NCBI GenBank assembly: GCA_947177795.1
Contig: CAMWVR010000002.1
Location: 25,764 to 89,763, forward strand
Direction: 5' to 3'
DNA length: 64,000 nucleotides
Origin: an uncultured Clostridia bacterium
GTDB lineage: Bacteria; Bacillota; Clostridia; Christensenellales; UBA3700
Position 1 is the stretch's first letter; each line of letters opens with the position of its first letter. Both the position numbers and the translations under genes were made by a program. The notes under the pieces were generated by a model. That model was not told where the DNA came from. It saw only the letters and a list, made by a program, of their open reading frames with translations, and searched no databases. Shown here piece by piece: positions 9,243 through 61,996 of this stretch.

Positions 9243-9659
9243 TAGATATTTCGACTTCGCTACGCTCCGCTCAATATGACTCGTTTGAAGCGAGAGTCAC
9301 GCCTTGAATGCGTCACTCTGAGCGAAACGAAGTGAAGTCGAAGAGTCTAATTTAATAATGTCATTTCGACCAAAGCGTAGCGTCGTGGAGAAATCTCAAC
9401 TGATATAAAAATGATTAGACCTCTCCGCTACGGTCGGTCGAGGTGACGAACACACCTCATCACCGCCTACGGCGGAGCTTCCCCTCAAGGGGAAGCCGAG
9501 GCACGGATATTTTCTGTCACTGACGCTCGCTACGTCCTCGCACCTGCTTGCTCGCTATGTACGACTACGTTACACTATGCTCATGGTGACTCGTTTAAAG
9601 CGAAAGTCACACATTCAACGAGTCATATTGAGCGGAACGAAGTGTAGTCGAAATATCTA
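9243..9659. repeat. Composite repeat block: 5 type-1 structured units, module-3 sequence and two extra perfect hairpins, bounded by inverted TATT-box units
   Basis: Units: 9243-9280 (-, TATT/AATA), 9312-9349 (+, CTCT/AGAG), 9360-9396 (+, TTTC/GAAA), 9416-9447 (-, CCTC/GAGG), 9622-9659 (+, TATT/AATA). Extra hairpins are CCGCC-TAC-GGCGG and GCTTCCCC-TCAA-GGGGAAGC (about 9463-9497). Positions 9516-9560 match the reverse complement of 32105-32150. Confidence 0.9.
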
Positions 9660-9688
9660 ATGTATTAAAGAATTAATCAAGCAAAGAC

Positions 9689-9714
9689 AAAAGCCACCTT
9701 AAAGGTGGCTTTTG
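9689..9714. terminator. Bidirectional terminator between the giant gene and the convergent acyltransferase gene
   Basis: AAAGCCACC-TTAAA-GGTGGCTTT with A-run and T-run flanks. Confidence 0.75.
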
Positions 9715-9768
9715 CTCGGTTAAACCGATATGTGGAAGTGAAAAAATTATGTGAAAAAAGCAAATTAA

Positions 9769-10809
9769 TTAAATTCTGTTTTCTGCAAAAGACTCTTCTT
9801 CATTTGCGTCTTCGAAGTTGCAATACTCAATCAATTCTTCGTCCATTTCGTCTTCGACGACGATTTGTCTCGGAGTGATTTGGTTTTGAGCCATTTTGAG
9901 CATCACGTTTTGACGCAAAGCATTGTCGTTTGGCTTTGTCAACAGCGTTTGTTCTTTGTCTATGAGTCCTTGCGCAACGAATTTGTTTTCAAGGGGAGTC
10001 AGTCTCATGTCATACTGCTCGTAGTCGTATCCATAGAATTCGCATACGGTGCGGTCGTACATTTCTTGCGTAGCCTTTTGCAAGTACTCGATATTCTCTT
10101 TAGCCGACAAATCTTTTTTTGGATAGATAGCGGGGCATATCTTGACCGTGCAGTCTTTCTTGACGCCCAGCTTTCGTCTGATCCAATTTGGTTTGCGGAA
10201 GAGTATTACCGTCATTACGACAGGCACGTTGTTTTTGACTGCGTAATGGAAAGCGCCTTTTTTGAGCGGACGGGAATTTTCGTACTTTTCCCACATTACT
10301 TGCTCGGCGTAGAACGTGACGACGGAGTTGCCTTCTTCAAAAATCGTCGAGATCTCTTTATCGAGATTGCTCATTGCTTTGATAGAATTTGCAAGAGGCA
10401 AAAATCTGCCTGCTCTCAAGAATTTTCCGCCGATGCCTTTTTTGAGTTGAAATTCTGCGCCCGTCATATAGTGTCTGTGACCAAAAGCTACTTGGAAGTT
10501 GACCATTGCGTCAAGCAACATGACGTGATTTGACACTCTTATTGCATTGTCCACTTGTTTGAGATTGTCTTTACCCTCGATTTTGAGGTCAAACAACAAT
10601 TTGTTGGCGAGCGGGAGCATAGTGCGTAAAAGGAATTTGACAATCGAGCTTCCCACTTTGAAACTTGCGGTTTTTGGACGGAACTGATAATCCTTGTCCA
10701 CGGTGATTGCATCGTCGACAGTATATGGCGTAGACCATTGATCGTACGCTTCCATTCTTGCGTATTGCGCATGCATTTGATCGTATTCTTTTTGGGTAAT
10801 CTTTGCCAT
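9769..10809 (-). CDS. Lysophospholipid (1-acyl-sn-glycerol-3-phosphate) acyltransferase family protein
   Basis: 346 aa. It has the HX4D-type motif SNHVMLLDA and downstream blocks consistent with the PlsC/LPLAT fold (FYAEQVMW, VPVVMTVILF). Confidence 0.6.
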   Translation of the reverse strand: MAKITQKEYDQMHAQYARMEAYDQWSTPYTVDDAITVDKDYQFRPKTASFKVGSSIVKFLLRTMLPLANKLLFDLKIEGKDNLKQVDNAIRVSNHVMLLDAMVNFQVAFGHRHYMTGAEFQLKKGIGGKFLRAGRFLPLANSIKAMSNLDKEISTIFEEGNSVVTFYAEQVMWEKYENSRPLKKGAFHYAVKNNVPVVMTVILFRKPNWIRRKLGVKKDCTVKICPAIYPKKDLSAKENIEYLQKATQEMYDRTVCEFYGYDYEQYDMRLTPLENKFVAQGLIDKEQTLLTKPNDNALRQNVMLKMAQNQITPRQIVVEDEMDEELIEYCNFEDANEEESFAENRI

Positions 10810-11116
10810 ATCTTTGTCCTCCGCTAATAAAATGTGTAAAAGTAATTGACTTTTATCTATTATTTTACTATTCTAATTATAGGTCAAATGGTACAAAATT
10901 TCAACTTAAAAACACATACCATTTGGCAGTGAAATGTATAATATTTGACATGTCAATATAATTATGTCGATTATTATACCACATTTTTGACAAATTGTTG
11001 CTACTTAATAATCAGTTAATATTGCGTTAACATTAAGTTAACATAGTCTTAACGATACTCAAATATGGCAAAAAAGTTTATATTTGTCAAACAAAATCAT
11101 CTATGGGAGAAGAATT

Positions 11117-11686
11117 ATGGACAAAACAAAAAAAGACAGAAGATTCAAGCGTACCCAACAGCAGTTGTTGTTGGCGTTGAAAGAATTGATAAACACCAAG
11201 AGTATTATCAATATTTCAGTGAGAGAACTTGCAGAGCTTGCCGACGTCAACAGAGCGACCTTTTATCTTCATTACAGAGACCCTTACGATATGCTCGAGC
11301 AACTTGGCAATGAATTTATTGACAATATGAAGACGATTCTCATCAAGGACAACGAGAGTTTCAATCCTGCCAAGAGTTTTGTAAATCTTTATAAATACGT
11401 CAAGGAAAATTACGACATTGCTTACATTCTATTTTCGCCCAACTGCGACAGCGGATTTGGCAGACATTTGGAGAGATCGCTTGAGAAGTTTTGTTTTGAC
11501 AGTTGGATAGTACGCGCCAAAGACGACGACTCTCGCAATTGCGATTATTACAGCGTCTACCTCGTCGCAGGTATCAAAGCGTTGTTGGAGAAGTGGATAT
11601 TCGACGGTTTTGTAGAGACGCCCGAAGAAATGGCAAAGTTATCTCAATATTTTATGATGTACGGCGGCAAGCAGTTCTGGGAATAG
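11117..11686 (+). CDS. TetR/AcrR-family transcriptional regulator (DhaS-like C-terminal domain)
   Basis: The ATG at 11117 is preceded by GGGAGA. The N-terminal HTH is FKRTQQQLLLALKELINTKSIINISVRELAELADVNRATFYLHY. The TTG at 11084 in the ORF track is probably an over-extension. Confidence 0.8.
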   Translation: MDKTKKDRRFKRTQQQLLLALKELINTKSIINISVRELAELADVNRATFYLHYRDPYDMLEQLGNEFIDNMKTILIKDNESFNPAKSFVNLYKYVKENYDIAYILFSPNCDSGFGRHLERSLEKFCFDSWIVRAKDDDSRNCDYYSVYLVAGIKALLEKWIFDGFVETPEEMAKLSQYFMMYGGKQFWE

Positions 11687-11711
11687 TTGATTCGTCAAAA
11701 GGGCAGTGATA

Positions 11712-12161
11712 CTAAGATTTTGACGGGATATCATATAAAGACTTTAATTCAAGCAATCGGGCGTAGGCAAGTTGATATTGCGCTACGCTTACCAATTGGA
11801 TTTTTTCATCTTTTGTAAACAAAGTCAGTTTGCCAATCTTTCCAAACTCTTTTTCCGCTTCGACTTTTTGCAAATCGCAAATCTTTATTAAATATTTATT
11901 TTTGCCTATAATCAATGTGTCGTCGTTGAGTTTGATAAGGTCAAACGTGAAGGAGAATTTTAGGTGCTTTGCTAAGCCGTTGCCTCCCACGCCAATCAGC
12001 GCAAGTGGCACGGAAAGAAGCCAAGCGCTATAAATGGATGGTCTAGAACTTTCGACAAAAAATAAGCCGTAAATTCCTAACGGCAGAGTAATTATGCCCA
12101 TGATTAGCATAAAGAAATAAACAAAAAACATTGACTTAGATTTTTTTGCAATTATCTCCAT
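11712..12161 (-). CDS. Hypothetical membrane protein (two N-terminal TM helices plus a small soluble domain)
   Basis: 149 aa with two hydrophobic helices. It overlaps the upstream gene's stop codon by 1 nt. No family recognised. Confidence 0.55.
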   Translation of the reverse strand: MEIIAKKSKSMFFVYFFMLIMGIITLPLGIYGLFFVESSRPSIYSAWLLSVPLALIGVGGNGLAKHLKFSFTFDLIKLNDDTLIIGKNKYLIKICDLQKVEAEKEFGKIGKLTLFTKDEKIQLVSVAQYQLAYARLLELKSLYDIPSKS

Positions 12162-12772: not shown

Positions 12773-12949
12773 AATATCACCTCTAATATATTTATATCAA
12801 TATTATATCAAGTCGTGCGATGATAAGTCAATGGGTTGTTTAGAGATTGCGTATTTACTCAGATTTTACATAATTAGAAAATTTTGTGTATTGACAGTAT
12901 TTATGTCGGTGATTATAATATACAGGGCTATTTTTGGCTAAGAGGTGAA

Positions 12950-14365: not shown

Positions 14366-14525
14366 GTCATTTCGACCGAAGCGTAGCGAAGTGGAGAAAT
14401 CTCAACGATATAATAAAATAGATTAGATTTCTCGACTGCGCTCGAAATGACTCGTTCAAGGTTTTACTTTCGATTCAAACGAGTCACCCTGAGCGTAGTC
14501 GAAGGGGCTGATCCGTTCGAAATGA
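14366..14525. repeat. Type-1 structured repeat cluster (3 complete units plus 1 truncated)
   Basis: Units: 14366-14402 (+, TTTC/GAAA, 16-nt loop), 14424-14451 (-, TTTC/GAAA, loop CGCAGT), 14483-14509 (+, CCCT/AGGG, loop CGTAGT). There is a truncated head in minus orientation at 14515-14525. Confidence 0.9.
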
Positions 14526-14544
14526 CATTGACGTCCATTTAAAA

Positions 14545-17371: not shown

Positions 17372-17597
17372 AAAAAACGCTCTGCCATACAATAGGCAAA
17401 GCATTAAAGTTGACAATTGGATAGATATTGTCAGTTTAAGCGCTTCACCTGATTGACTAGGTGACAGTCGCAGGGTTGTTCACCGTAGCGACCAACCGCA
17501 TATCTCGCAAGATTGATATACGATTTCGGCAAAATATCCTTTCTTGGGTGCGTCTTGTCGCATTTTTCCCAATACTATTATATTCTGCGCCTCTGTA
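17372..17597 (-). promoter_or_regulatory. Lysine riboswitch (L-box) with terminator expression platform, leader of asd-dapA-dapB
   Basis: The minus strand reads ACAGAGGCGC..AGTA..GGGAA..GAAAGG..GCCGAA..TGG..ACTGTCAC-CTAGTCAATCAGG-TGAAGCGC, matching the conserved L-box blocks. It is followed by the hairpin GCTTTGCC-TATTGTAT-GGCAGAGC plus TTTTTT (17372-17402), and lies directly upstream of lysine-pathway genes. Confidence 0.8.
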
Positions 17598-17689
17598 AAC
17601 TTAAGAGTATATTATCATATTATTTAAGATATGTAAAGCGATTTGCAATCAAAACATTTTGGAAATTTATGTAACGCTGTCGCCGTGAC

Positions 17690-17833
17690 GTCATTTTGCG
17701 TCAACTTGTCATTTCGACCGTAGTAATTTTGTCATTTCAAGGTAGTCATTCTGTCATTTCGAGCGTAGCCGAGAAATCTATTTAATAACGCCGTTGCGTT
17801 ATTTTGTCACCTCGAGCGTAGCCGAGAGGTCTA
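17690..17833 (+). repeat. Type-1 repeat cluster: tandem array of truncated GTCATTT heads followed by 2 complete units
   Basis: Heads start at 17690, 17708, 17731 and 17745. Complete units are 17753-17780 (TTTC/GAAA, loop CGTAGC) and 17806-17833 (CCTC/GAGG, loop CGTAGC). Confidence 0.85.
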
Positions 17834-26280: not shown

Positions 26281-26408
26281 CGAGCGCGTATATCAGCCGT
26301 CTTTTGGTCCTAACGTCGGGACTCAAGAAGTCGACGTGTACGGCAAGTACACTTGACGACTTCGTTTCGCCCTAGCACGGACAAAAATACGACTAATCTC
26401 CACGCTCG
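26281..26408 (+). repeat. Type-2 long-hairpin element (128 nt) with terminal inverted repeats CGAGCG(C/T)G
   Basis: The left and right halves are largely complementary around the apical hairpin GTGTAC-GGCAA-GTACAC. It shares blocks with 51872-51996 and 61774-61933: CGAGCGCGTATA, TCTTTTGG, CGTTTCGCC and CACGGACAAAAATA. Confidence 0.85.
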
Positions 26409-26426: not shown

Positions 26427-26518
26427 GTCATTGACGCTCGCACGAGACAATCTAGCTTTATGTATTATGACAAATATTAGTGTCATTTCGACTGAAGCGT
26501 AGCGGAATGGAGAAATCT
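26427..26518 (+). repeat. Type-1 repeat units (1 variant plus 1 canonical)
   Basis: 26427-26454 is GTCATTGACGCTCGCACGAGACAATCTA, with ATTG/CAAT boxes around module-3 sequence. 26482-26518 is canonical, with TTTC/GAAA boxes and a 16-nt loop. Confidence 0.85.
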
Positions 26519-27472: not shown

Positions 27473-27545
27473 GAGACCTTTCGACTACGCTCAAGATGAC
27501 GTTTAGATGTCATTTCGACCGTAGCGTAGTGCAGTGGAGAAATCT
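27473..27545. repeat. Type-1 repeat pair
   Basis: 27473-27500 is minus orientation, with boxes TCTT/AAGG (one G.T-type pair) and loop CGTAGT. 27509-27545 is plus orientation, TTTC/GAAA, with a 16-nt loop. Confidence 0.85.
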
Positions 27546-31930: not shown

Positions 31931-32189
31931 TAGATTTCTCGACTGCGCTCGAAATGACATAAAAAGTTTGGTAGATGTGACATAGAGAATAAACTAAGTG
32001 ACAAATCTTCTGTCATTTCGACCGAAACGAAGTGAAGCGGAGAAGTCTCTACAGTCAACGAGTCACTCTGAGCGAAACATAGTGTAGACGTAAGGAGCGT
32101 AGCGACGGCATAGCGAGCAAGCAGGTGCGTCTCGTGCGAGCGTCAGAGTCTAATACGGATATAGACCTCTCCGCTACGGTCGAGGTGAC
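31931..32189. repeat. Type-1 repeat cluster between ffh and rpsP (4 units, including one long-loop variant)
   Basis: Units: 31931-31958 (-, identical to 14424-14451), 32012-32047 (+, TTTC/GAAG, G.T-type), and 32062-32152 (+, CTCT/AGAG boxes about 75 nt apart enclosing module-3 sequence). The fourth unit is 32162-32189 (-, CCTC/GAGG, loop CGTAGC). Confidence 0.88.
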
Positions 32190-35144: not shown

Positions 35145-35277
35145 GTCATTTTGACGACAATATTTTGTCATTTCGACCGAAGTGGAGAAATCTAAATCAA
35201 TGTGGAAAGAGACCTCTCGACTACGCTCGAGGTGACATATGTATATTTAGCTAAATAAAATTAAGTCGAAGAGTCTA
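35145..35277. repeat. Type-1 repeat cluster between rbgA and rnhB
   Basis: A truncated head at 35145. Complete units at 35167-35194 (+, TTTC/GAAA, loop CGAAGT) and 35209-35236 (-, CCTC/GAGG, loop CGTAGT). An isolated tail AGTCGAAGAGTCTA at 35264-35277. Confidence 0.85.
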
Positions 35278-35312
35278 TAAAAAATATTATAAAATCACAA
35301 AAGGAAAGTATT

Positions 35313-44677: not shown

Positions 44678-45978
44678 AAGTCAACGTTATAGGCGGAGGC
44701 TTGGCAGGGTGCGAGTGCGCATATCAACTTCTGAAGAGAGGATTCCAAGTCGATATGTACGAGATGAGAGGAGTCAAGAATACTCCCTGTCACTCGACGG
44801 AGCGCTTGGCGGAACTCGTGTGTTCCAATTCTTTAAAGGCGCAGAGCCTTGACAATGCGTCGGGACTTTTAAAGTACGAGCTTGCAAGACTCGACAGCCT
44901 TATTCTCAAATGCGCTTACGCAAGCGACGTGCCTGCGGGCGGAGCGCTTGCCGTCGACAGAGTCAAGTTGAGCGAGAGCGTGGAAAAAGTCCTCAACGGA
45001 TTTGATTCATTCAAGTTGATAAGACGAGAGATAGAGACGGTAGATTTGAGTTTGCCCACCGTCATTGCCACGGGTCCGCTGACTTCAGACAAAATGGCGA
45101 AGTGGATTGAAGACTTTTTAGGCGGAGAATATCTCAACTTCTACGATGCGGTTGCGCCTATCGTAGACGGAGACAGCATAGATTACGACAAAGCATTTTT
45201 TGCCGCAAGATACGGCAAGGGCGGAGACGATTATCTCAACTGCGCAATGAACAAAGAGCAGTATCTTGCGTTTTACGACGCTTTGATACACGCAGAGAGA
45301 GCAAAACTCAAAGACTTTGAATTTGAGGTATTCGAGAGGTGTATGCCCATAGAAGTCATGGCGTCGAGAGGCGTGGATACCATGAGATACGGTCCGTTGA
45401 GACCCGTAGGCATTCGCAATCCTCACAGCGACGAGAGACCTTATGCGGTGATTCAACTTCGCAAAGAAGACGGCGAGGGAAGCGCATACAATATTGTCGG
45501 CTTTCAGACCAATCTCAAATTCGGGGAGCAAAAGAGAGTATTCTCTATGATACCCGGTCTTGAGAATGCAGAGTTCTTAAGATACGGAGTTATGCACGCC
45601 AATACCTTTATCAACGCTCCCAAAGTATTGGACGGCGCCTTTGGCGTAAAAAATATTCCTTACGTATTTTTTGCGGGTCAGCTGACGGGGGTCGAGGGAT
45701 ATATGGAGAGCGTGGCGAGCGGACTTATGGCAGGTATCAATTTGGCAAGACGGCTGTCGTGCAAATCCGATTTGATTATGCCGGTCACGAGCGTGATAGG
45801 CAGATTGCAAAGGCATATATCCACGCCAAGCGACGATTATCAGCCTATGAACGCAAACTTCGGGATATTGCCGACTTTGGACGACGCTCCGAGGGACAAA
45901 AAGAAACGGAAATTCAAATATTCTTTGCGCGCAATCGGCGACGTAGAGAGTTATCTCAAATCAATAAAGGAGATTTAA
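44674..45978 (+). CDS. trmFO: Methylenetetrahydrofolate-tRNA-(uracil54-C5)-methyltransferase TrmFO (Gid)
   Basis: 434 aa starting [15 protein letters not shown], with LVCSNSLK and GFQTNLK motifs. The start overlaps the topA stop (ATGA). Confidence 0.93.
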
Positions 45979-45980
45979 TT

Positions 45981-46514
45981 ATGGAAATGATGGGTACTAC
46001 CATTTGCGCGGTAAGGCGCAACGGAAAAATCGCAATAGCCGGCGACGGACAGATTACTATGGGACAGAGCGTCATACTCAAGGGTACGGCGAAGAAAGTC
46101 AAGAGAATATTCGACGACAAAGTCGTCATAGGTTTTGCAGGCAGTGTGTCCGACGCAATATCGCTCAGCGAAAAGTTTGAGAAGATGTTGCAGAAATACA
46201 GCGGTAATCTTATGCGCAGCGCAGTAGAACTTGCCGAACTTTGGAGAGACGACAAGTTGCCGAGAAAGTTGGAGGCAATGATGCTTGTCGCAGATAAAGA
46301 AAACTTGCTTATCGTGTCGGGCAGCGGCGAAGTAATAGACCCCGACGGCGACGCTTGCGCGATAGGCTCGGGCGGCAATTACGCATTGGCAGCGGCAAGA
46401 GCGATGGTCAAGGAGACGGATCTTTCGGCAAAAGAGATTGCATACAAAGCGCTCGTCATTGCAAGCGAGCTTTGCGTCTTCACCAACAACAATATCATTG
46501 TAGAGGAGGTGTAA
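45981..46514 (+). CDS. hslV: ATP-dependent protease subunit HslV
   Basis: ATG at 45981 after AAAGGAG, with the mature N-terminal TTI motif ([12 protein letters not shown]). The track ORF start at 45759 overlaps trmFO and is an extension. Confidence 0.92.
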
Positions 46515-46515
46515 T

Positions 46516-47838
46516 ATGAATGATTTTACGCCAAAACAGATAGTTGCAGAACTCGACAGATATATCATAGGTCAGCAAAGCGCAAAAAAAGCGGTGGCAG
46601 TAGCTCTCCGCAACAGATACAGAAGGAGCAGACTTCCCGAGTCTTTGAGAGAGGAGATTTCTCCCAAGAATATTATCATGCAGGGACCTACGGGTGTGGG
46701 TAAGACGGAGATTGCAAGACGTCTTGCAAAACTCGTCAAAGCGCCGTTTATCAAAGTAGAGGCAACCAAGTTTACGGAAGTAGGCTACGTCGGCAGAGAC
46801 GTAGAATCCATGATACGCGACCTTGTCGAGGCGTCTATCAGAATGGTAAGCGAAGAGAAGTCCAAAGAAGTAGAACTTCGCGCAAGAGAGAGAGCCGAGG
46901 AAAAACTCGTGCCTGCAATTACCAAGAAGAGAAAAGAAGCTTATCCAGATTTGACGGACGGTCAGATGAGAGGATATATCTTGCAAGAGATAAGAGAAGG
47001 CAAAGTCGACGATCTCGTCGTCACGCTCGAGTTGCCCGTCAAGCCCAAGCAGCAGACTATCAGCAATCAAGCGGGTATGGAGATAAATATCAACGAACTT
47101 TTCGGGTCTATGATGGGCGGCGGCAAGACCAAGTCCAAGACCGTCACCGTAAAAGAAGCCTTGAAGATACTCATCGAAATGGAAGAGGAAAAACTCATCG
47201 ACCCCGACAACGTCAATGCAGAGGCTATATCGAGAGCGGAAAACGAGGGAATTATCTTCATTGACGAGATTGATAAGATAGCAAGTAAGTCGAGCGGAAG
47301 CGGCGGCGGACACGACGTGTCGAGAGAGGGCGTACAGAGAGATATATTGCCTATCGTCGAGGGTTGTACCGTCAACACCAAGTACGGACAGATCAAGACG
47401 GATCACATTCTCTTCATTGCGGCGGGCGCATTCCACATTTCAAGCGTATCCGATTTGATACCCGAACTTCAAGGTAGATTTCCTATATCCGTCCGTTTGG
47501 ACAGCCTTACGGAAAAAGACTTTGAAGAGATATTGACAAAACCCGACAATGCTATACTCATGCAATATACTGCGTTGCTCGGAGTGGACAATATCAAACT
47601 CAAGTTTACCGCCGAGGCAATCAAAGAACTTGCTAAGATATGCGCGGTGGAGAACGAAAACAAAGAAGACATCGGCGCAAGACGACTTCACACGATGATG
47701 GAGAGTTTGCTTGAAGATATCTCTTACGAGGCTTGCGATTTGAAAGAGACTACTGACGTGACGATAGATAAGTCCTACGTAGACAAGCACTTCGAGAGCG
47801 TCATCAAAAAACTCAATCTAAACAAATATATATTGTAA
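46516..47838 (+). CDS. hslU: ATP-dependent protease ATPase subunit HslU
   Basis: 440 aa with TPKQIVAELDRYIIGQ, GPTGVGKTEIARRLA, IIFIDEIDKI and GARRLHT. Confidence 0.96.
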   Translation: MNDFTPKQIVAELDRYIIGQQSAKKAVAVALRNRYRRSRLPESLREEISPKNIIMQGPTGVGKTEIARRLAKLVKAPFIKVEATKFTEVGYVGRDVESMIRDLVEASIRMVSEEKSKEVELRARERAEEKLVPAITKKRKEAYPDLTDGQMRGYILQEIREGKVDDLVVTLELPVKPKQQTISNQAGMEININELFGSMMGGGKTKSKTVTVKEALKILIEMEEEKLIDPDNVNAEAISRAENEGIIFIDEIDKIASKSSGSGGGHDVSREGVQRDILPIVEGCTVNTKYGQIKTDHILFIAAGAFHISSVSDLIPELQGRFPISVRLDSLTEKDFEEILTKPDNAILMQYTALLGVDNIKLKFTAEAIKELAKICAVENENKEDIGARRLHTMMESLLEDISYEACDLKETTDVTIDKSYVDKHFESVIKKLNLNKYIL

Positions 47839-47873
47839 TAAATAAGAAATATAAAAATTTCAATATCCGTTAC

Positions 47874-47911
47874 GTCATATTGAGCGTAGCGCAGCGGAGT
47901 CGAAATATCTA
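47874..47911 (+). repeat. Type-1 repeat unit upstream of hisS
   Basis: GTCA-TATT-GAG-CGTAGCGCAGCGGAGT-CGA-AATA-TCTA. Confidence 0.88.
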
Positions 47912-47942
47912 AAAACAAAAAGATACAGTAAAGAGGCAGAAA

Positions 47943-49199
47943 ATGATAAACATACCAAAGGGAACTAAAGACGTATTGCCAAGCGAGAGCTACAAGTGGC
48001 ACTATATCGAGAATACGGTAAGGGAAGTCGCAAGACTTTTCGGCGCCAACGAAGTGCGTACTCCGACTTTTGAACACACGGAATTGTTTTTGAGAGGAGT
48101 GGGCGACACGACGGATATTGTCAACAAGGAGATGTACACCTTTGAGGACAAGGGCAAGAGAAGTATTACATTGAAGCCCGAAGGGACGGCAGGCGTAGCA
48201 AGAGCATTTATTGAAAATTCGTTTTTCAATTCGCCTCAACCCACCAAGATGTATTATATCACGCCTGTATTTAGATATGAGAGACCGCAAGCAGGCAGAT
48301 TGAGAGAACACCACCAATTCGGAGTGGAGTTTTACGGCTCGTTTGCTCCCCAAGCCGACGTCGAAGTAATGTCTCTTGCCAAGAGCATTTTTGCAAAACT
48401 CGGAGTCAAGGACTTGCAACTCAATATCAATTCAATTGGTTGCAAGAGTTGTCGCAAGGAATACAACAAGGCGCTCAAGGATTATTTTTCCTCCAAGATC
48501 GACAAGATGTGCGCTACTTGCAAGGAACGGCTTGACAAAAATCCATTGAGAATACTCGATTGCAAGGAAGAGGCTTGCAAAGCAATAGTTAAGGACGCTC
48601 CCAACACGATAGATTATCTCTGCGACGACTGCAAGTCGCACCACGAGAGCGTATGCAAAGGCTTGACTTCGATAGGTCTTGATTACGTAGTCAATCCGCG
48701 TATCGTCAGAGGACTTGACTATTATACACGCACGGTATTTGAGTTTATCTCCACAGGCATAGGCGCTCAAGGTACCGTATGCGGCGGCGGCAGATACAAC
48801 GACCTCGTAGAGCAAGTAGGCGGCAAGCCGACTCCTGCGGTTGGTTTCGGTATGGGTATAGAGCGACTTATTATGGTACTCGAGAGCCTTGGACTTTCGA
48901 TAGGAGAGCCGTATGCGCCCGCCGTATATATCGCGCCGATGTGCGAAGATGCAAAGGACGTTGCGCTTACGCTTGCCAATTGCTTGAGAGCCAACGGCGT
49001 ATCGGCAGAGTTTGACATTATGGACAGGAGTTTTAAGGCGCAGATGAAATACGCCGACAAACTGTCCGCCGACTTCGTCGCAATTATTGGCGAAGATGAG
49101 TTGAAGGCTGACAAAGTTGCCGTCAAGAATATGAAGATCGGCGAGCAAGAGAGTGTAGAGACGAATAAACTCGTTGAGTATATTCAAAGTAAGAAGTAA
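47943..49199 (+). CDS. hisS: Histidine-tRNA ligase
   Basis: 418 aa with class II motifs: GTKDVLP, FRYERPQAGRLREHHQFGVE, and GGGRYNDL. Confidence 0.96.
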   Translation: MINIPKGTKDVLPSESYKWHYIENTVREVARLFGANEVRTPTFEHTELFLRGVGDTTDIVNKEMYTFEDKGKRSITLKPEGTAGVARAFIENSFFNSPQPTKMYYITPVFRYERPQAGRLREHHQFGVEFYGSFAPQADVEVMSLAKSIFAKLGVKDLQLNINSIGCKSCRKEYNKALKDYFSSKIDKMCATCKERLDKNPLRILDCKEEACKAIVKDAPNTIDYLCDDCKSHHESVCKGLTSIGLDYVVNPRIVRGLDYYTRTVFEFISTGIGAQGTVCGGGRYNDLVEQVGGKPTPAVGFGMGIERLIMVLESLGLSIGEPYAPAVYIAPMCEDAKDVALTLANCLRANGVSAEFDIMDRSFKAQMKYADKLSADFVAIIGEDELKADKVAVKNMKIGEQESVETNKLVEYIQSKK

Positions 49200-49216
49200 T
49201 GGTGAAGAAGTATCGA

Positions 49217-49320
49217 TAGACCTTTCGACTACGCTCAAGGTGACATTTTGATATGTCGTTTCGACTAGTCTAAAGTCATTTCGACTAGCCAATGTCATTT
49301 CGAGCGCAGTCGAGAAATCT
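49217..49320. repeat. Type-1 repeat cluster between hisS and aspS
   Basis: 49217-49244 (-, CCTT/AAGG, loop CGTAGT), degenerate heads at 49255 and 49276, and 49294-49320 (+, TTTC/GAAA, loop CGCAGT). Confidence 0.88.
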
Positions 49321-49409
49321 CAAACAGATTATATATGTTTGAGACGAACCCAACACATAATACTGATAAAATAATAATTATAATAATTAAAATAATAGAG
49401 GATAATAAT

Positions 49410-51206: not shown

Positions 51207-51884
51207 ATGTTTTCACGTACCCAAAAACTCATAGGAGAGGACGGCTTGCAAAGACTCTTTGCAAGCAAAGTCCTCGTCGTCGGCGTGGGGGGAGTAGGCG
51301 GATATGCCGTCGAAATGCTTGCCCGCGCGGGCGTCGGTACGTTGGGAATTATGGATGGAGATTTGGTGGATATCTCCAACAAAAACCGTCAGATAATAGC
51401 GCTTGATTCCACCGTGGGAAAACCCAAGGTGGAGGCTTTAAAGGAGAGAATACTCGATATAAATCCTTGTTGTAACGTAATTTTGTTCAACGAGCGTTTT
51501 TCCGCAGACAACTCCAATGTTTTGGATATGGAGTGGGACTATATAATCGACGCCATAGACTCTTTTGAAGACAAAGTGGATTTGATTTGCCTTGCTAAAA
51601 GAAAGGGCATTGAAATAATCAGCGCTATGGGCGCGGGCAACAGAGTTGAACTTTGCGACTTTGAGATATGCGATATATACAAGACGAGTTACGATCCATT
51701 GGCAAAAAAACTCCGAAAGGCGCTCAAAGACAGAGACGTAAATAATCACGTCGTGTGCTATACAAAGACGCCTACAATTCCGACGACAGACGGAGTGGGA
51801 AGCGTAAGTTATATACCTCCGCTTTGCGGAATTAAAATTGCGGGGTACGTTATTCAAAAAATACTTCAAGACGAGCGCGTATAG
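51207..51884 (+). CDS. tcdA: tRNA threonylcarbamoyladenosine dehydratase (TcdA/CsdL, ThiF/E1-like)
   Basis: 225 aa with the Rossmann motif VLVVGVGGVGGYAVEMLARAGVG and DxD...NRQ. The last 4 codons and the stop lie inside the type-2 repeat. Confidence 0.75.
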   Translation: MFSRTQKLIGEDGLQRLFASKVLVVGVGGVGGYAVEMLARAGVGTLGIMDGDLVDISNKNRQIIALDSTVGKPKVEALKERILDINPCCNVILFNERFSADNSNVLDMEWDYIIDAIDSFEDKVDLICLAKRKGIEIISAMGAGNRVELCDFEICDIYKTSYDPLAKKLRKALKDRDVNNHVVCYTKTPTIPTTDGVGSVSYIPPLCGIKIAGYVIQKILQDERV

Positions 51885-51996
51885 CGTCACTCTTTTTGCC
51901 CTAAAAACTAGGACGCACTCGGGGTCACGTACAGAAAGTACGCTCACCGCTCGTTTGCCGTTTCACGGACAAAAATAGCAACACTCTCCGCGCTCG
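51872..51996 (+). repeat. Type-2 long-hairpin element (125 nt) overlapping the 3' end of tcdA
   Basis: Terminal inverted repeats are CGAGCGCG (51872-51879) and CGCGCTCG (51989-51996). The apical hairpin is ACGTAC-AGAAA-GTACG. It shares blocks with 26281-26408. Confidence 0.85.
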
Positions 51997-55905: not shown

Positions 55906-55991
55906 GTCATTTCGCTGGACACTGCGAAATGGAGAAATCTCAATCCTTACGTCGTCATTTCGACCGTAGCGTAGCGAAGCGGAGAAATCTA
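55906..55991 (+). repeat. Type-1 repeat pair after glyA
   Basis: 55906-55940 is a variant with TTTC/GAAA boxes, the 5' GA replaced, and an inner ATTTCGC/GCGAAAT stem. 55954-55991 is canonical with TTTC/GAAA boxes and loop CGTAG-CGTAG-CGAAG-C. Confidence 0.85.
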
Positions 55992-56569: not shown

Positions 56570-56570
56570 T

Positions 56571-57746: not shown

Positions 57747-57759
57747 AGGAGTAATTATT

Positions 57760-58137: not shown

Positions 58138-58226
58138 TATTCGACCATTATTTGCCACTGTTGCTGCGCAATATAATTTCCCATTGCGTACACACTATGC
58201 AAGAGAAAAGCAAAGGAGGTGAGTCG

Positions 58227-58364
58227 ATGTTGAAAGCCGGATTGATGCTTGGCTTCGGCGCAGGCGTTTTGACAGCCGTCGTAGCTACTTCAAAAATGAA
58301 GAACACTATAATGGATCAGGGCAAGAAAATGCTCAAGGACAAAATAATCAAAGTTCTTGATTAA
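58227..58364 (+). CDS. Small (45 aa) membrane-associated protein
   Basis: ATG at 58227 after AAAGGAGGTG, with one hydrophobic helix (LKAGLMLGFGAGVLTAVVA) and a K-rich tail. The track ORF start at 58152 is an extension. Confidence 0.55.
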   Translation: MLKAGLMLGFGAGVLTAVVATSKMKNTIMDQGKKMLKDKIIKVLD

Positions 58365-58405
58365 CAATTAGTTCGTATTGCTTAATATCGGACTTTTAGA
58401 CAAAC

Positions 58406-58448
58406 AAAAAGCGACTGTCACAATCAAAATCAGTGATAGTCGCTTTTT
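58406..58448. terminator. Bidirectional intrinsic terminator
   Basis: AAAAAGCGACTGTCAC-(11 nt)-GTGATAGTCGCTTTTT, with an A-run and a T-run on either side, between convergent genes. Confidence 0.85.
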
Positions 58449-58461
58449 ATTTATTTAACTT

Positions 58462-59229
58462 TCAATATTGTCTTTTGCAAAAGTCGTTCTCGTTACTTGG
58501 CGGAGCGATATAGTCGCCGTTTTTGTCGTTGGTCTCAAAGATTATGTTGTCTACGTTTTTGACCGCCAAATCAAAGTTGCCATGAGTGCGTACAGTCCAA
58601 CCTATCATAATCATATCGGGATTTTCTTTGCAAATTTTTTGGTAGTATTTGCTTGGCAGATTTTTCAGAGAAGTTGCCAAAAAGTCGACGTAGCGATATT
58701 GTTTCATGCTCCTGACCATAATTCTATGCAAGGTATACCAATCGCAAAGTTGACCGAGTATTATTTCGGGATGATTTTTTGCCCACCAGCGCACGACGTA
58801 TGGATCGAACGATTCTATGCAATAATTGCCCTTATAGTTTTTGAGAGCCTCCCATATTTGCGAGCAAGTAATTTCGACTGCCTTGGTAGGTTTGATTTCA
58901 ATGACTAGTCCCACTTGTCCGTCGACAAGAGCAAGCGTTTGCTCAAAGGTGGGAATGGAGTAGTCGGTGTTCATCAATTTGTATTCTTCGAGTTTTGAAG
59001 AGTCGACTTGAGTGGTTTTGCCTGCCCGTCCGCAAGTGCGGTTGAGCTTTGGGTCGTGGTGGACGATGAGTTGTCCGTCGTCGGTGCGCCATACGTCGAA
59101 TTCTATTCCGTATCCGTGTCGGATAGCGTTTTCAAATGCGCCCAAAGAATTTTCGGGCAAAGTCTTATTGTTGTGAAGTCCTCTGTGAGCCACGGGTACG
59201 GCAGTCAACCATTTAGTATCTTTTTTCAT
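58462..59229 (-). CDS. Glycerophosphodiester phosphodiesterase family protein
   Basis: The start at 59229 (MKKDTKW) is preceded by AGGAGAT. Motifs are AHRGLH..PENSLGAF, GIEFDV and HHD. The track start at 59373 overlaps the upstream gene. Confidence 0.82.
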   Translation of the reverse strand: MKKDTKWLTAVPVAHRGLHNNKTLPENSLGAFENAIRHGYGIEFDVWRTDDGQLIVHHDPKLNRTCGRAGKTTQVDSSKLEEYKLMNTDYSIPTFEQTLALVDGQVGLVIEIKPTKAVEITCSQIWEALKNYKGNYCIESFDPYVVRWWAKNHPEIILGQLCDWYTLHRIMVRSMKQYRYVDFLATSLKNLPSKYYQKICKENPDMIMIGWTVRTHGNFDLAVKNVDNIIFETNDKNGDYIAPPSNENDFCKRQY

Positions 59230-59237
59230 TTTATCTC

Positions 59238-59846
59238 CTAATACCCCAAGGATTCGCCTATTATGACGATATATACGTTTTCTTGATATCTCGTGGGGTG
59301 GTGGGATATCAAAGTAGCGTTGCATATGCAGTCCTCGCTGTCGCACAGACAGCATTGTCCGCTCGTGGCGCAAGGCGTGTTTTTATTGAGTCTTTTTGCG
59401 TTGGGCGGAGCGGCGACATTGCGCGCTCTGTCTATTGCGCTTGCGAGGTCGGGAGCTATTTTGTTGGTTCCCAAGACGTAAAGGATGTTTTTCACGCCAA
59501 AAGCCAGCGCAGAAATTCTGTTTGCCGAGCCGTCGATATTGACGACGTCGCCCTCTTGGCTCAATGCGTTTGCGGACGATATATACCAATCGGCAGAGCC
59601 TGCGAGTTGATAGACCTTATCTCTCAGCTCGGGCGACACGAGAGCGTGCGAATAGACGGTATTGCCTCTTTCCGCAAGAGTATTATACAAGCCGAGTTCT
59701 TTGACGGTCATGCTTCCGCCGATACCCACGCTTGCGGTCTGCGGAATGAGGTTGAGCGCAAAGTCAACGGCGTCTTTTTTATCGTCGAAATAAAAGGGTT
59801 TAAAACCTCTTTTTGTAAGATTGTTGAGTAGGTTTTGTATTTGCAT
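59238..59846 (-). CDS. LUD-domain (lactate-utilisation LutC/YkgG-like) protein with a C-terminal Cys cluster
   Basis: ATG at 59846 after GGGGGA. The body is LUD-like (SVGIGGSMT...SSANALSQEGDVVNIDG.ANR) and the tail is CATSGQCCLCDSEDCIC. Confidence 0.7.
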   Translation of the reverse strand: MQIQNLLNNLTKRGFKPFYFDDKKDAVDFALNLIPQTASVGIGGSMTVKELGLYNTLAERGNTVYSHALVSPELRDKVYQLAGSADWYISSANALSQEGDVVNIDGSANRISALAFGVKNILYVLGTNKIAPDLASAIDRARNVAAPPNAKRLNKNTPCATSGQCCLCDSEDCICNATLISHHPTRYQENVYIVIIGESLGY

Positions 59847-59976
59847 ATTTTCCCCCAAATATATTTGCTAAAATCTGTATTTTTCTATATAATATAATAA
59901 ATTAGACTTGCTGTCAACCCCCATTGTCGGGATTGAGCAGGGGATTTGCTTAAAAATAAATCGGGTAGAGGAAGTT

Positions 59977-61773
59977 ATGCCTAAAGATCAATCCAACATA
60001 AGGAATTTTTGTATAGTAGCTCACATAGACCACGGCAAGAGTACGCTTGCCGACTGTATTATGGACGTCACGCAGACCGTAGCTAAGCGAGACGCCAAAG
60101 AGCAGCTTCTCGACAGTATGGATATCGAGAGGGAGAGAGGTATCACTATTAAACTTACGCCTGTGACCATGAAGTACAAATATAATGGCGAAGAATATAC
60201 TTTTAATTTGATCGACACTCCGGGACACGTTGACTTTACCTACGAGGTGTCGAGATCGCTCAAAGCGTGCGAGGGAGCGATACTCATTGTCGATGCATCG
60301 CAGGGTATAGAGGCGCAGACTTTGACCAACGTATATCTTGCGCTTGACAATGATCTTGAGATAATTCCCGTAATCAACAAAATAGACTTACCATCCGCTA
60401 GACCCGACGAAGTCAAGGCGGAGATAGAGGACGTCATAGGTCTTGACGCTCAAAATGCGCCGCTTATTTCTGCAAAGGAGTGTATTGGCATAGACGAAGT
60501 GCTCAAGCAAGTAATAGAGCTTTTGCCGCCCCCGAGCGGAAGTTACGACGCTCCGTTCAAAGCTTTGATATTCGATTCTTATTACGACTCTTACAAGGGC
60601 GCAATATCTTTTATCAGAGTTTTTGACGGCGAAGTCAAAGCGGGAGACAGAATAAAGATGTGCGTCACGGGCAAAGAATTCGAGGTCACCGAAGTGGGAG
60701 TATTCGTGCCAAAAATGCAGGCAAGAGATACGCTGTCGGCGGGCGACGTAGGTTATCTTTGCGCCAGTATCAAGAACGTCAGCGACACAAAAGTTGGAGA
60801 TACTATACTTATGGCAAGCGATAAGATTTCAAAGCCGCTCGACGGATACAAAGAAGCTTCGCCCATGGTATTTTCGGGCGTATATCCTGCGGACGGATCC
60901 AAGTATAACGACCTCAAAGACGCATTGGAAAAACTTAAACTCAACGACGCTTCGCTTATGTACGAACCCGAGGTGTCGACGGCGCTTGGCTTTGGTTTTA
61001 GATGTGGATTCTTGGGACTTTTGCATATGGAGATCATACAAGAGAGGTTGGAGAGAGAATTCGATCTCGACTTAGTGACGACTGCGCCCAGCGTATCTTA
61101 TAAAGTCATCAAGACCAACGGCGAGGAGATAATAGTGTCCAATCCGTCCAACTTGCCGCCTGCGGGCGACATTGACCATATGGAAGAGCCCGTAGTCAAC
61201 GCTTTTATCTATACGCCGCCCGAGTACGTCGGATCTATTATGGAACTTTGTCAGGACAAGCGAGGAGAGTTTATCAACCTCACTTATCTTGATACGACGA
61301 GAGTACGCATAGACTACGTCATGCCTCTCAACGAAATAATCTACGATTTCTTCGATACGCTCAAATCTCGTACTAGAGGTTATGCAAGTCTCGACTATGA
61401 GATAGCAGATTATAAGCGTAGCGATCTCGTCAAGTTGGATATGTTGCTCAACGGCGAAGTCTGCGACGCATTGAGCCTTATCGTGCACAAAGACAAGGCA
61501 TACGCAAGGGGCAGAGGTATTGCCGAAAAGCTAAAAGACGTAATACCAAGACAGCTTTTTGAGATACCTATCCAAGCTGCAATCGGCGGCAAGGTTATTG
61601 CAAGAGAGACCGTCAAGGCAATGCGCAAAGACGTGCTTGCCAAGTGTTACGGCGGAGATATTACCCGTAAGAAAAAGCTTCTTGAAAAACAAAAAGAGGG
61701 CAAGAAGCGTATGCGCCAAGTAGGTTCCGTAGAAGTGCCGAGCGAAGCATTCATGTCAATCCTGAAGATATGA
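59977..61773 (+). CDS. lepA: Translation elongation factor 4 (LepA)
   Basis: The ATG at 59977 gives [26 protein letters not shown]. Motifs are [13 protein letters not shown], and the LepA C-terminal domain. Confidence 0.96.
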
Positions 61774-61933
61774 GTTTGGCGATAAGCGAGGCGTCGCAAG
61801 TTTACACGGCAATAATGCTTACTCTACGTCTTCAAACTCACTTGACGTACAGCAAGTACGCCTGCATTCGTTTTCATCGTATAGAAAACATTCTTACTCG
61901 TGATAATCTTACGCCGCTCCCTTATCGCCAAAC
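61774..61933 (+). repeat. Type-2-related long-hairpin element (160 nt) with 13-bp perfect terminal inverted repeats
   Basis: The TIRs are GTTTGGCGATAAG...CTTATCGCCAAAC. The apical hairpin is CGTAC-AGCAA-GTACG. Internal blocks resemble 26281-26408. It starts 1 nt after the lepA stop. Confidence 0.8.
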
Positions 61934-61969
61934 TTGACGAGTGAGTATATAACTAATTCAAATTAATAT

Positions 61970-61996
61970 GTCATCTCGACCGAAGCGGAGAGATCT
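61970..61996 (+). repeat. Type-1 repeat unit
   Basis: GTCA-TCTC-GAC-CGAAGC-GGA-GAGA-TCT. Confidence 0.88.

Follow-up and report, generated by a model that had tools for sequence, protein, structure and literature searches.

Introduction

The window, a stretch of 64 kb from the genome of an uncultured Clostridia bacterium, carries a dense family of short repeats between its genes, which raises the question of what these units are and which protein, if any, reads them. A first-pass annotation described them as hairpins of a type that it did not recognise. Here we give an account of the units, of their pairing and of the genes that adjoin them in other genomes.

Repeat content of the window

The unit formula is GTCA-N4-GA-S-apex-S'-GA-N4'-TCT, in which N4/N4' is termed the box and the apex contains either a single CGNAG pentamer or three, for unit lengths of 26 nt and 36 nt. 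The pattern GTCA-N4-GA...GA-N4'-TC, with at most one box mismatch, returned 22 units, against a mean of 0.14 and a maximum of 1 in 100 shuffles of the window; the addition of 14483-14508 brings the complete units to 23. Two further units, 32062-32154 (+) and about 9511-9590 (-), carry apex inserts of approximately 66-70 nt, and about nine pieces are truncated or degenerate, decayed copies being the minority. The same repeat families were recovered independently by a generic repeat search of the window (D1-D4, I1-I12). The features are as follows.

4091..4128, +, degenerate unit directly 3' of a stop codon (GTCATTTTGAGCGAAATAG...AAAAAATC), overlapping a terminator-like inverted repeat (I16)
9245..9280, -, complete unit, 36 nt, GAG...CGA, box TATT/AATA
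9281..9311, no strand, spacer of a head-to-head pair, conserved, imperfectly palindromic (TCGTTTGAAGC...CTTGAATGC), also in the related MAG L022 (repeats I2, I3)
9312..9347, +, complete unit, 36 nt, GAG...CGA, box CTCT/AGAG (L022 orthologue TTCT/AGAA)
9360..9395, +, complete unit, 36 nt, GAC...GGA, box TTTC/GAAA
9418..9447, -, complete unit, 30 nt, GAC...GGA, box CCTC/GAGG, tail-to-tail with 9360-9395
9511..9590, -, unit with apex insert of about 66 nt, box CCAT/AGTG (two mismatches), head-to-head with 9622-9657 (repeat I1)
9591..9621, no strand, conserved head-to-head spacer (TCGTTTAAAGC...ATTCAACGA) (repeat I2)
9622..9657, +, complete unit, 36 nt, GAG...CGA, box TATT/AATA
14366..14401, +, complete unit, 36 nt, GAC...GGA, box TTTC/GAAA
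14426..14451, -, complete unit, 26 nt, GAG...CGA, box TTTC/GAAA
14452..14482, no strand, conserved head-to-head spacer (repeats I2, I3)
14483..14508, +, unit, 26 nt, box CCCT/AGGG, tail GC in place of TC, which breaks the first pair
14508..14526, -, truncated head (GTCATTTCGAACGGATC)
17708..17745, +, tandem of two truncated heads (GTCATTTCGACCGTAG, GTCATTTCAAGGTAG), 5' of a complete unit
17753..17778, +, complete unit, 26 nt, GAG...CGA, box TTTC/GAAA
17806..17831, +, complete unit, 26 nt, GAG...CGA, box CCTC/GAGG
26482..26517, +, complete unit, 36 nt, GAC...GGA, box TTTC/GAAA
27475..27500, -, complete unit, 26 nt, box TCTT/AAGG (one G.T)
27509..27544, +, complete unit, 36 nt, GAC...GGA, box TTTC/GAAA
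31933..31958, -, complete unit, 26 nt, box TTTC/GAAA, shares 29 identical nt with the 49292-49320 copy (repeat I8)
32012..32047, +, complete unit, 36 nt, GAC...GGA, box TTTC/GAAG (one G.T)
32062..32154, +, unit with apex insert of about 70 nt, box CTCT/AGAG, without the 3' GA
32164..32189, -, complete unit, 26 nt, GAC...GGA, box CCTC/GAGG
35145..35155, +, truncated head (GTCATTTTGAC)
35167..35192, +, complete unit, 26 nt, GAC...GGA, box TTTC/GAAA
35211..35236, -, complete unit, 26 nt, GAG...CGA, box CCTC/GAGG
35264..35279, +, orphan tail (AGTCGAAGAGTCTATA)
47874..47909, +, complete unit, 36 nt, GAG...CGA, pentamers CGTAG CGCAG CGGAG, box TATT/AATA
49219..49244, -, complete unit, 26 nt, box CCTT/AAGG
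49255..49288, +, tandem of two truncated heads (GTCGTTTCGACTAG, GTCATTTCGACTAG)
49294..49319, +, complete unit, 26 nt, box TTTC/GAAA
55906..55943, +, variant with uninterrupted stem (GTC-ATTTCGC-loop-GCGAAAT), then a GAC...GGA-type tail GGAGAAATCTCAA, as read from the sequence
55954..55989, +, complete unit, 36 nt, GAC...GGA, box TTTC/GAAA
61970..61995, +, complete unit, 26 nt, GAC...GGA, box TCTC/GAGA, same sequence as the unit 3' of the ssn gene in L177

The apex inserts of 9511-9590 and 32062-32154 are related to each other. A unit is present at each coordinate cited by the first-pass annotation, and the dense family it reported is confirmed, but its counts of 26 complete and about 10 truncated copies in 14 spacers are slightly high; we count 11-12 unit-bearing spacers. 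All units are intergenic, as had been claimed. The sole apparent exception, 32164-32189, was rejected as a unit inside a CDS; the overlapping ORF is spurious, antisense and upstream of rpsP (start 32267). The units sit 3' of genes, with none in the divergent promoter spacers of the window.

The units form BIME-like arrays, in which the spacer of head-to-head pairs is conserved (TCGTTTRAAGC...); in tail-to-tail pairs about 23 nt of AT-rich sequence separate the partners. The box differs between partners in five of the six window pairs.

Hairpin structure and covariation

On the element strand (GTCA), the (T/C)GTC tag is unpaired and precedes a 5-bp stem composed of an A-T pair and the free but complementary 4-bp box. 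Further inward lie a tandem G.A/A.G step and a G-C or C-G pair, and the apex is either a C-G-closed GNA mini-loop or, with three pentamers, a longer purine-rich apex; an invariant C stands immediately 3' of the stem. Eight different boxes occur in the window, and the only two imperfect ones (27475-27500 and 32012-32047) are both G.T in element sense; these cases, the box complementarity and the coherent S/S' switch are as first described.

Covariation was assessed on 82 different 26-mers, drawn from the window and from over 100 species with N4 and N4' unconstrained. In this set 98.1% of cells are paired, compared with 78.0% after shuffling (none of 500 shuffles reached the observed value) and 22-46% in slid registers. 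Both sides change in five of the seven pairs, while S/S' is GC in 71 sequences and CG in 11, without mismatches. On viral contigs, 49 of 59 matches are fully complementary. A core-only search with unconstrained flanks found GTCA upstream of the core in 16/16 window cases and 78/78 at the nuclease loci described below, with the same fractions for C at +2; T or C precedes GTC in 93%. At the orthologous spacer of L022 the same composite is present with a compensated change, CTCT/AGAG versus TTCT/AGAA. The repeats are real covarying DNA hairpins, and the earlier model of an A-T pair, four covarying pairs, tandem G.A/A.G, a switching closing pair and a variable apex holds for sequences from many phyla. 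Nearest-neighbour folding, as DNA or as RNA, gave no unusual stability (z -0.9 to +2.0), and its parameters may miss the stability of sheared G.A and of the GNA loop.

Association with GIY-YIG nuclease genes

A Y1-HUH transposase had been proposed as the gene to look for elsewhere in the genome. A motif scan with a crude regular expression detected no HUH...Y-NP ORF in about 120 unit-bearing stretches and the window, and the earlier statement that the window holds no RAYT-like gene is correct. The gene that adjoins the units, in 4 of 119 unit-bearing stretches, encodes a small GIY-YIG protein. A reverse search started from these proteins gave 80 metagenomic gene loci, and strict units were found in 49 of the 80; as these loci are the best hits for a single query clade, the fraction does not describe the family as a whole.

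These genes (ssn) usually have a '+' unit within 100 nt upstream and a '-' unit within 100 nt downstream: 39 '+' and 6 '-' units lie upstream within this distance, and 41 '-' and 4 '+' downstream. Unit density is 5.7-5.8 per kb within 100 nt of ssn and 0.03-0.08 per kb beyond 300 nt. Both flanks carry units in 28 of 67 loci, and the boxes of the flanking pair differ in 25 of 29. All four window types (short, long, GAG...CGA and GAC...GGA) flank ssn genes elsewhere, and the Firmicute Peptococcaceae bacterium BICA1-8 has the same cassette with units. An array like that at 17708-17745 also adjoins an ssn gene in L138, and the three-pentamer form of 47874-47909 flanks those in L191 and L258.

The unit-associated proteins have 91-104 aa with PF01541 as sole domain, and one of them shares 56% identity (E 1e-34) with the gonococcal orthologue of SsnA, a 94-aa protein that contains Y6, Y17 and E64 and whose gene has canonical NTS at its flanks. 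In the alignment of the unit-associated proteins Y6 and Y17 are invariant and E64 is nearly so. The Ssn family, small GIY-YIG single-stranded-DNA nucleases, was described from Neisseria in 2025 (PMC11893778).

The partner to expect is thus a GIY-YIG ssDNA nuclease instead of a Y1 transposase, and DNA, not RNA, is most likely the form in which the hairpin is read, because the units share their ends with CGTC-tagged REPs and with NTS/SRM and flank SsnA homologues. Classical REPs or REPINs moved by a Y1 (HUH) RAYT or an IS200/IS605 TnpA encoded elsewhere do look similar, with a conserved 5' tetranucleotide, an imperfect palindrome, inverted pairs and clustered arrays; this origin is nevertheless very improbable, given the (T/C)GTC tag in place of GTAG, the motif scan and the adjoining GIY-YIG gene; CGTC-tagged REPs, moreover, were found not to flank tyrosine transposase genes (PMC3733652).

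Insights into function and spread

We consider it likely that the units are recognition sites, as ssDNA hairpins, of a single-domain GIY-YIG endonuclease of the Ssn family of about 94 aa. By analogy with Neisseria SsnA, which binds ssDNA only, recognises the folded strand in a single orientation and does not bind RNA (PMC11893778), the cognate nuclease would do the same; the C after the palindrome would be needed for binding and GTC for cleavage, with a cut a few nucleotides 5' of the tag, as in that enzyme (PMC11893778). In other genomes the gene stands between inverted units (unit+ - ssn - unit-). The scattered window units would be REP/MITE-like derivatives of a cassette of this kind located in another part of the Clostridia genome, accumulated at the least harmful sites, 3' of genes and outside divergent promoter spacers. 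We infer an ssn gene in this genome outside the window, which itself has none; its product presumably accepts the G.A-type hairpin with any box.

Alternatively, the units could act as RNA, as 3'-UTR hairpins whose tandem G.A is bound by an RNA-binding protein or which block exonucleases, so that the upstream mRNA is stabilised or processed as proposed for E. coli REPs. The majority of window units lie between stop codon and intrinsic terminator and are probably transcribed, both imperfect window boxes are G.T, and RNA action has been proposed for CGTC/GTAG REPs (PMC3733652). We regard this as improbable, however: relative to the transcript upstream, 13 window units are sense and 10 antisense by hand count, a nearly even division, and the split across phyla is also weak ('++' 38 versus '--' 27, from crude gene calls); an antisense copy would carry pyrimidine mismatches in place of G.A. 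Moreover, 11 non-Watson-Crick cells among the 82 26-mers are not G.U versus 6 that are, the RNA fold is of ordinary stability, no Rfam family matches, and the constant GTC and 3' C correspond to positions that SsnA, which has no RNA binding, recognises (PMC11893778). A side-effect as RNA may exist.

It is also unlikely that the units are selfish or neutral palindromes with no dedicated protein partner in the source genome, spread by replication slippage, template switching or gene conversion, the ssn link elsewhere being historical. No GIY-YIG or ssn gene is found among the ORFs of the 64-kb window, tandem truncated heads suggest slippage-like events, and turnover at the orthologous spacer is fast, with a 36-nt TATT unit in the window where L022 has a 26-nt CCCT unit and L034 is arranged differently; SsnA was likewise undetectable in about 19% of SRM-rich genomes (PMC11893778). 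Decayed copies are the minority, however, and G.A-type units occur in more than a dozen bacterial phyla with constant GTC, G.A step and 3' C and a freely varying stem, which argues for ongoing selection by a reader and not for drift.

Comparison with known repeats

The family had been called unrecognised; no Rfam family matches the units and the published SRM expression has no match in the window, but their ends and their flanking of SsnA homologues link them to catalogued systems. Like the window units, CGTC-tagged REPs (2013; PMC3733652) and the NTS and Ssn-related motifs of Neisseria (PMC11893778) bear a (C/T)GTC tag, have A-T as the first pair of the stem and are followed by a C. The organisation is also that of CGTC-REPs, which form head-to-head dimers with conserved spacers, and heterodimers, between unidirectional or convergent genes and without a transposase (PMC3733652). 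The window units are distinguished as a variant by their two G.A mismatches. In Neisseria SsnA, a changed stem sequence abolished activity even when the hairpin was kept (PMC11893778), and eight boxes in one window fit this poorly, unless the subfamily reads shape or several paralogues exist. The window units are probably a G.A-interrupted, previously uncatalogued variant of this known ssDNA-hairpin and nuclease system.

Repeat units in the window

The repeat units are hairpins of the form GTCA-N4-GA-S-apex-S'-GA-N4'-TCT, in which N4/N4' is termed the box and the strand reading GTCA is termed '+'. A search with the pattern GTCA-N4-GA...GA-N4'-TC, allowing at most one box mismatch, found 22 units in the window versus 0.14 in shuffles, and the number of complete units becomes 23 once 14483-14508, with the tail GC, is included. 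Two more units carry an apex insert of ~66-70 nt, and the remaining ~9 pieces comprise truncated heads, one orphan tail and degenerate units. An independent repeat search of the window recovered the same unit families. Every coordinate and sequence feature cited in the first-pass annotation was verified in the window; the dense intergenic family that it described stands, and its copy counts have to be lowered slightly to the values given here.

The units occupy 11-12 spacers, all of them intergenic and each located 3' of at least one gene; none of the five divergent spacers of the window holds a unit. Two core types occur, GA-G...C-GA and GA-C...G-GA, and the apex consists of one CGNAG pentamer (26-nt unit) or three consecutive ones (36-nt unit). 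The units form mosaic arrays containing the following recurrent arrangements, and paired units differ in box in 5 of the 6 window pairs.

9281-9311, 9591-9621 and 14452-14482: head-to-head spacer, conserved and itself palindromic, TCGTTTRAAGC...TTCAAACGA
9360-9447 and 14366-14451: tail-to-tail pairs with an AT-rich spacer of ~23 nt

A common sequence of ~60 nt with CATAGCGAGCAAGCAGGTGCG lies in opposite orientations at approximately 9520-9580 and 32085-32145, inside the apex of two units; it looks as though the hairpin loop had received an insertion, or as though these units formed a subfamily with long loops. Tandem truncated unit heads (~14-23 nt, ending near ...TAG) were seen 5' of complete units at 17708-17745 and 49255-49288, and similar arrays are present in a metagenomic contig (L138) at ~1190-1290 and 3' of its ssn gene, ssn being the gene of a small GIY-YIG single-stranded-DNA nuclease (Ssn family). 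These tandem heads may be a footprint of unit formation or breakage. Spurious small ORFs also arise from the units. The Logan contig SRR14411321_107076, which corresponds to window positions 44943-49323 and was the sole long contig found to carry an identical HisRS, ends within the repeat cluster at 49294-49319; since it stops inside a unit cluster, the units appear to break short-read assemblies.

Covariation and folding of the hairpin

Species genomes, one per species, were scanned with the pattern GTCANNNNGASCGNAGYSGANNNNTCT, in which both boxes are unconstrained, and at least 119 stretches bearing units were obtained. By their record titles, the matches listed include Bacteroidota, Rhodothermales, Ignavibacteria, Verrucomicrobiota, Kiritimatiellae, Planctomycetota, Acidobacteriota, Chloroflexota, Dormibacterota, Clostridia, Patescibacteria, several Proteobacteria, Bdellovibrionota, Helicobacteraceae and Zixibacteria. 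Among the 146 unit matches listed there are 23 distinct boxes, and 130 of the matches show full complementarity between box and partner box; the S/S' pair is G..C in 130, C..G in 16 and non-complementary in none.

Combining the matches listed with those of the window gave 82 distinct 26-mers, in which 98.1% of the paired cells are complementary versus 78.0% after shuffling (0 of 500 shuffles reached the observed value), and both-side changes are present in 5 of the 7 pairs. These values bear out the first-pass claim that the pattern reflects selection on a hairpin. Slid registers pair 22-46% of cells, and the second stem pair is T-A in 63 of the 82. An alternative register via a TCGA palindrome, which folding prefers, was rejected on the covariation, as the corresponding slide of -2 pairs 44.8% of cells. 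Nearest-neighbour folding energies of the units are unremarkable, both as DNA and as RNA.

The orthologous spacer of a related MAG keeps the composite element found in the window, and in its second unit the box has changed from CTCT/AGAG to TTCT/AGAA. The first unit of that composite has another box and another length than in the window, and the arrangement differs again in a third relative. The free-box covariation and the compensated change at the orthologous spacer indicate that complementarity is maintained through change and not merely copied. That the family might consist of copies of a few palindromic masters, the case named in advance as telling against selection, is contradicted by the 23 boxes among the matches listed and by the compensated change.

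Viral contigs gave the same covariation picture from few matches. The viral collection as a whole holds 51 unit stretches (L204-L254) and no ssn gene, compared with at least 119 stretches in the species-genome scan; the units are therefore unlikely to be a phage element and look chromosomal.

Partner loci in other genomes

The association between units and ssn was approached from both sides. Starting from the units, 4 of the 119 stretches listed bear a small GIY-YIG ORF adjoining units, with a unit directly 5' of it in 3, and the proteins are 93-97 aa long and match PF01541 only. From the protein side, a scan of metagenomes gave strict G.A-type units at 49 of the best 80 ssn loci, which are the top matches to one query clade, so that the rate applies to that clade and not to the whole family. 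Within 100 nt upstream of ssn there are 39 '+' versus 6 '-' units, and within 100 nt downstream 41 '-' versus 4 '+'. Unit density is 5.7-5.8 per kb beside ssn versus 0.03-0.08 per kb past 300 nt, a difference of ~100-fold. Units flank the gene on both sides in 28 of the 67 loci with sufficient sequence, and the two flanking boxes are unlike in 25 of 29. At many of the other loci there are near variants, with a GAA step or 5-nt boxes, or motifs whose stem is uninterrupted. Gene calls in these foreign loci are crude.

All four unit types of the window are represented on ssn flanks elsewhere, and one cassette is flanked by the same 36-nt three-pentamer form as in the window. A protein-database search returned 532 relatives; the named ones include a protein of the Firmicute Peptococcaceae bacterium BICA1-8, whose gene has G.A-type units on its flanks. 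In the window itself, no ssn gene was found among ORFs of at least 40 aa.

Two retrieved loci (L140 and L145) have reversed flanking units with heads toward ssn ('-' upstream, '+' downstream), a minority among cassettes, in which heads-out is usual. A further stretch (L110, 3932-4534) holds a decayed GIY-YIG gene with a disrupted frame and a weak match, with units still on its flanks; cassettes can thus erode while units stay.

Unit ends and relation to SsnA

Chenal et al. (2025, Nat Commun; PMC11893778) describe, in the text available, the Neisseria motif NTS, CGTCATTCCCGCGMAVGCGGGAATCYRG, and Ssn-related motifs (SRMs), which flank ssnA, the gene of a 94-aa single-domain GIY-YIG protein. According to that text, SsnA binds the folded motif as ssDNA only, leaving the reverse strand, dsDNA and RNA unbound, and cuts a few nt upstream; strand-specific binding and cutting of ssDNA only is reported there for Neisseria and Wolbachia homologues. 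Cleavage depends most on GTC, the three bases before the palindrome, and binding most on the C directly 3' of it. In Neisseria the nuclease is stated to lower the integration of transforming DNA that bears the motif, and the cassette is described as IS-like (PMC11893778).

A core-only search with unspecified flanks recovered both of these ends in the units. The core is preceded by GTCA both in the window (16/16 matches) and at ssn loci (78/78), and C is found at +2, after the closing T, in the same 16/16 and 78/78; the base preceding GTC is T or C in 93%. The units of the window thus have both the unpaired HGTC tag and the C after the palindrome that define SRM ends. Their stem comprises 8-9 positions, two of them invariably G.A; loops measure 3-4 nt or far more, and the tail reads CT(A/C). 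The inverted repeat falls within the 20-50 nt range of SRM hairpins, with its stem broken by the G.A/A.G step.

A tblastn search against the plasmid collection led to a Neisseria gonorrhoeae chromosome filed there, in which a 94-aa gene with Y6, Y17 and E64, the residues published for SsnA, sits among canonical NTS copies. The partner proteins are 91-104 aa long, contain GIY-YIG (PF01541) only and are 35-56% identical to this gonococcal SsnA orthologue; in the alignment, Y6 and Y17 are invariant and E64 is nearly so. The 56% value (E 1e-34, catalytic residues aligned) belongs to a protein flanked by G.A-type units. A Rhizobium homologue has an uninterrupted-stem motif on its flanks and a Spirosoma homologue a minimal G.A-type motif, so the motif variants grade into one another.

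Other features of the window

The window is a housekeeping region of Firmicute-type synteny with 44% G+C, with the gene groups SMC-FtsY and Ffh, TrmFO-HslV-HslU-HisRS, and asd...dapB preceded by a lysine riboswitch. Among the sequences retrieved, the window is closest to an uncultured Clostridia MAG, in which an orthologous gene is ~75% identical at the nucleotide level, and to a Christensenellaceae MAG.

17431-17603, minus strand: lysine riboswitch (RF00168, 84 bits), located in the asd...dapB operon leader; the sole Rfam match at gathering score

Repeat units at 17708-17831 lie directly upstream of the riboswitch. A second intergenic repeat family is represented by 26281-26408 and 51872-51996, which are 77-79% identical over two blocks; the latter copy is an imperfect palindrome with 37-nt arms, and the family has no Rfam match. 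A 162-nt intergenic element at 61773-61934 has 18-nt inverted ends, AGTTTGGCGATAAGCGAG and CTCCCTTATCGCCAAACT, adjoins a repeat unit and is a candidate MITE or structured RNA. An ORF of 1615 aa at 4395-9242 (plus strand) matched nothing in Pfam at E up to 0.001; its 3' end is conserved in two related Clostridia MAGs, where it is ~75% identical at the nucleotide level.

Proposed function and mobility

We propose that the strand reading GTCA, when present as single-stranded DNA, would fold into the hairpin, and that an Ssn-family nuclease would recognise it and, by analogy with SsnA, nick 5' of the tag. The corresponding ssn cassette is probably located elsewhere in this genome. The scattered units of the window would then be REP/MITE-like offshoots of it that persist in 3' intergenic DNA, and the tail-to-tail pairs resemble cassettes minus the gene. 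Identical distant copies, fast turnover at orthologous spacers and tandem truncated heads show that the units are dynamic.

Units situated in 3' UTRs may have an RNA side-effect. The window units lie almost equally in both directions with respect to transcription (13 sense, 10 antisense), which, together with the restriction of SsnA to ssDNA, argues against a role in RNA and favours one at the DNA level. Across phyla, orientation relative to neighbouring genes has a weak bias only, as judged from crude gene calls that inflate the 'inside ORF' class in GC-rich genomes.

These findings tie an abundant orphan repeat to a defined enzyme family and give it a testable ssDNA-level function in transformation, conjugation, replication or mobility. 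From a free box combined with an invariant G.A/GNA core one would predict a class of Ssn specificity in which structure, and not stem sequence, is recognised; such a class would be useful for ssDNA tools. A bolder proposal, which we regard as unlikely, is that unit, ssn and inverted unit together make up a new kind of autonomous mobile element, driven by a GIY-YIG ssDNA nuclease and not by a transposase, with the window units as its MITE-like derivatives and an Ssn subfamily that reads the shape given by the GTC tag, the sheared G.A step, the GNA cap and the 3' C, and accepts any complementary 4-bp box. If true, it would constitute a naturally modular ssDNA recognition system across more than 12 phyla.

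Comparison with known systems

With the REP/BIME and REPIN elements of E. coli and Pseudomonas and their RAYT, the units share a short, imperfectly palindromic form headed by a conserved tetranucleotide at the 5' end, alternating mosaic arrays in 3' intergenic DNA and a single-copy domesticated nuclease gene between inverted units. They differ in having a GTC(A) tag and a GIY-YIG partner instead of a GTAG tag and an HUH/Y1 enzyme. Identity with REP/REPIN-RAYT was rejected on the tag and because a crude motif scan found no HUH/Y-NP ORF in the window or in ~120 unit-bearing stretches, in agreement with the first-pass observation that the window has no RAYT-like gene. An IS200/IS605-like guide relation between box and flank was likewise rejected, since the same box is only slightly over-represented upstream, an excess that the tandem truncated heads explain. 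The conserved positions do not fit the hammerhead core, K-turn, sarcin-ricin loop, attC, or CsrA or Shine-Dalgarno sequestration.

Hirao and Yoshizawa reportedly worked on the extraordinarily stable DNA mini-hairpins d(GCGNAGC) and on tandem sheared G.A mismatches. The apex S-CGNAG-(Y)-S' holds a C-G-closed GNA triloop of this kind, and the GAG...CGA type places the G.A step in a Y-GA-R context. That work concerns a physical property of oligonucleotides and not a genomic family, and standard folding parameters give the units no extra stability.

The 4227 covariance models of Rfam gave nothing on the units of the window at E up to 10, in line with the first-pass annotation, which did not recognise the element as an Rfam family, and nothing in 20 ssn loci. 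Literal unit sequences matched only chance primers in the literature, and searches on small dispersed repeats or a COG2827 RNA motif gave nothing relevant.

The CGTC-tagged REPs, CGTC-1 to -4, which include Neisseria dRS3 and Rickettsia RPE-4/RPE-6, are closer. In the available text of the survey (Di Nocera et al. 2013, PMC3733652) they have an unpaired CGTC/TGTC tag, an 8-9 bp stem opening with A-T then T-A, a 4-5 nt loop and a 3-nt tail; they form mainly head-to-head dimers, often heterodimers, with conserved spacers, and lie between unidirectional or convergent genes in five phyla without an associated transposase. On that description the units share the tag, the A-T first pair, the stem of 8-9 positions and the occurrence in several phyla, and those of the window also the head-to-head pairs with a shared spacer, the heterodimers, the unidirectional or convergent placing and the lack of a transposase. 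The same text defines CGTC-REPs with at most one stem mismatch, gives the tail CCA and has no Firmicutes among its five phyla, whereas the units always have G.A/A.G at stem positions 6-7, end in CT(A/C) and are found here in Clostridia.

With NTS and SRMs, as far as the available text of PMC11893778 describes them, the units share the HGTC tag, the A-T stem start (usually then T-A), the pyrimidine-rich 5' arm, the invariant C after the palindrome, hundreds of intergenic copies and the layout of unit, small GIY-YIG gene and inverted unit. They differ in that a conserved tandem G.A/A.G step interrupts the stem, and in being capped either by a GNA loop closed by C-G or by an apex of three pentamers. 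Their 4-bp box varies freely in a single genome; the stem in Neisseria, by contrast, is presented there as fixed and sequence-specific. The host here is a Clostridia-class Firmicute, whereas that paper's main text deals mostly with Pseudomonadati. The published SRM expression, HGTCWYN(0-2)YYVSBRHN(0-5)WNVSBRGN(0-2)RNCYNB, an operational search pattern and not a biological criterion, has no match in the window; canonical NTS fits it, but none of the unit types does. SRM censuses made with it therefore probably undercount.

This kind of repeat is thus already known, and its G.A variant appears to be uncatalogued, since the SRM expression rejects it, Rfam has no model and the CGTC-REP survey, in the text available, excluded more than one stem mismatch. 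Distinctive of the variant are a tandem G.A/A.G step that never varies, a GNA cap closed by C-G or an apex of repeated pentamers, the box that is free within a genome, and the occurrence in Clostridia and more than a dozen other phyla.
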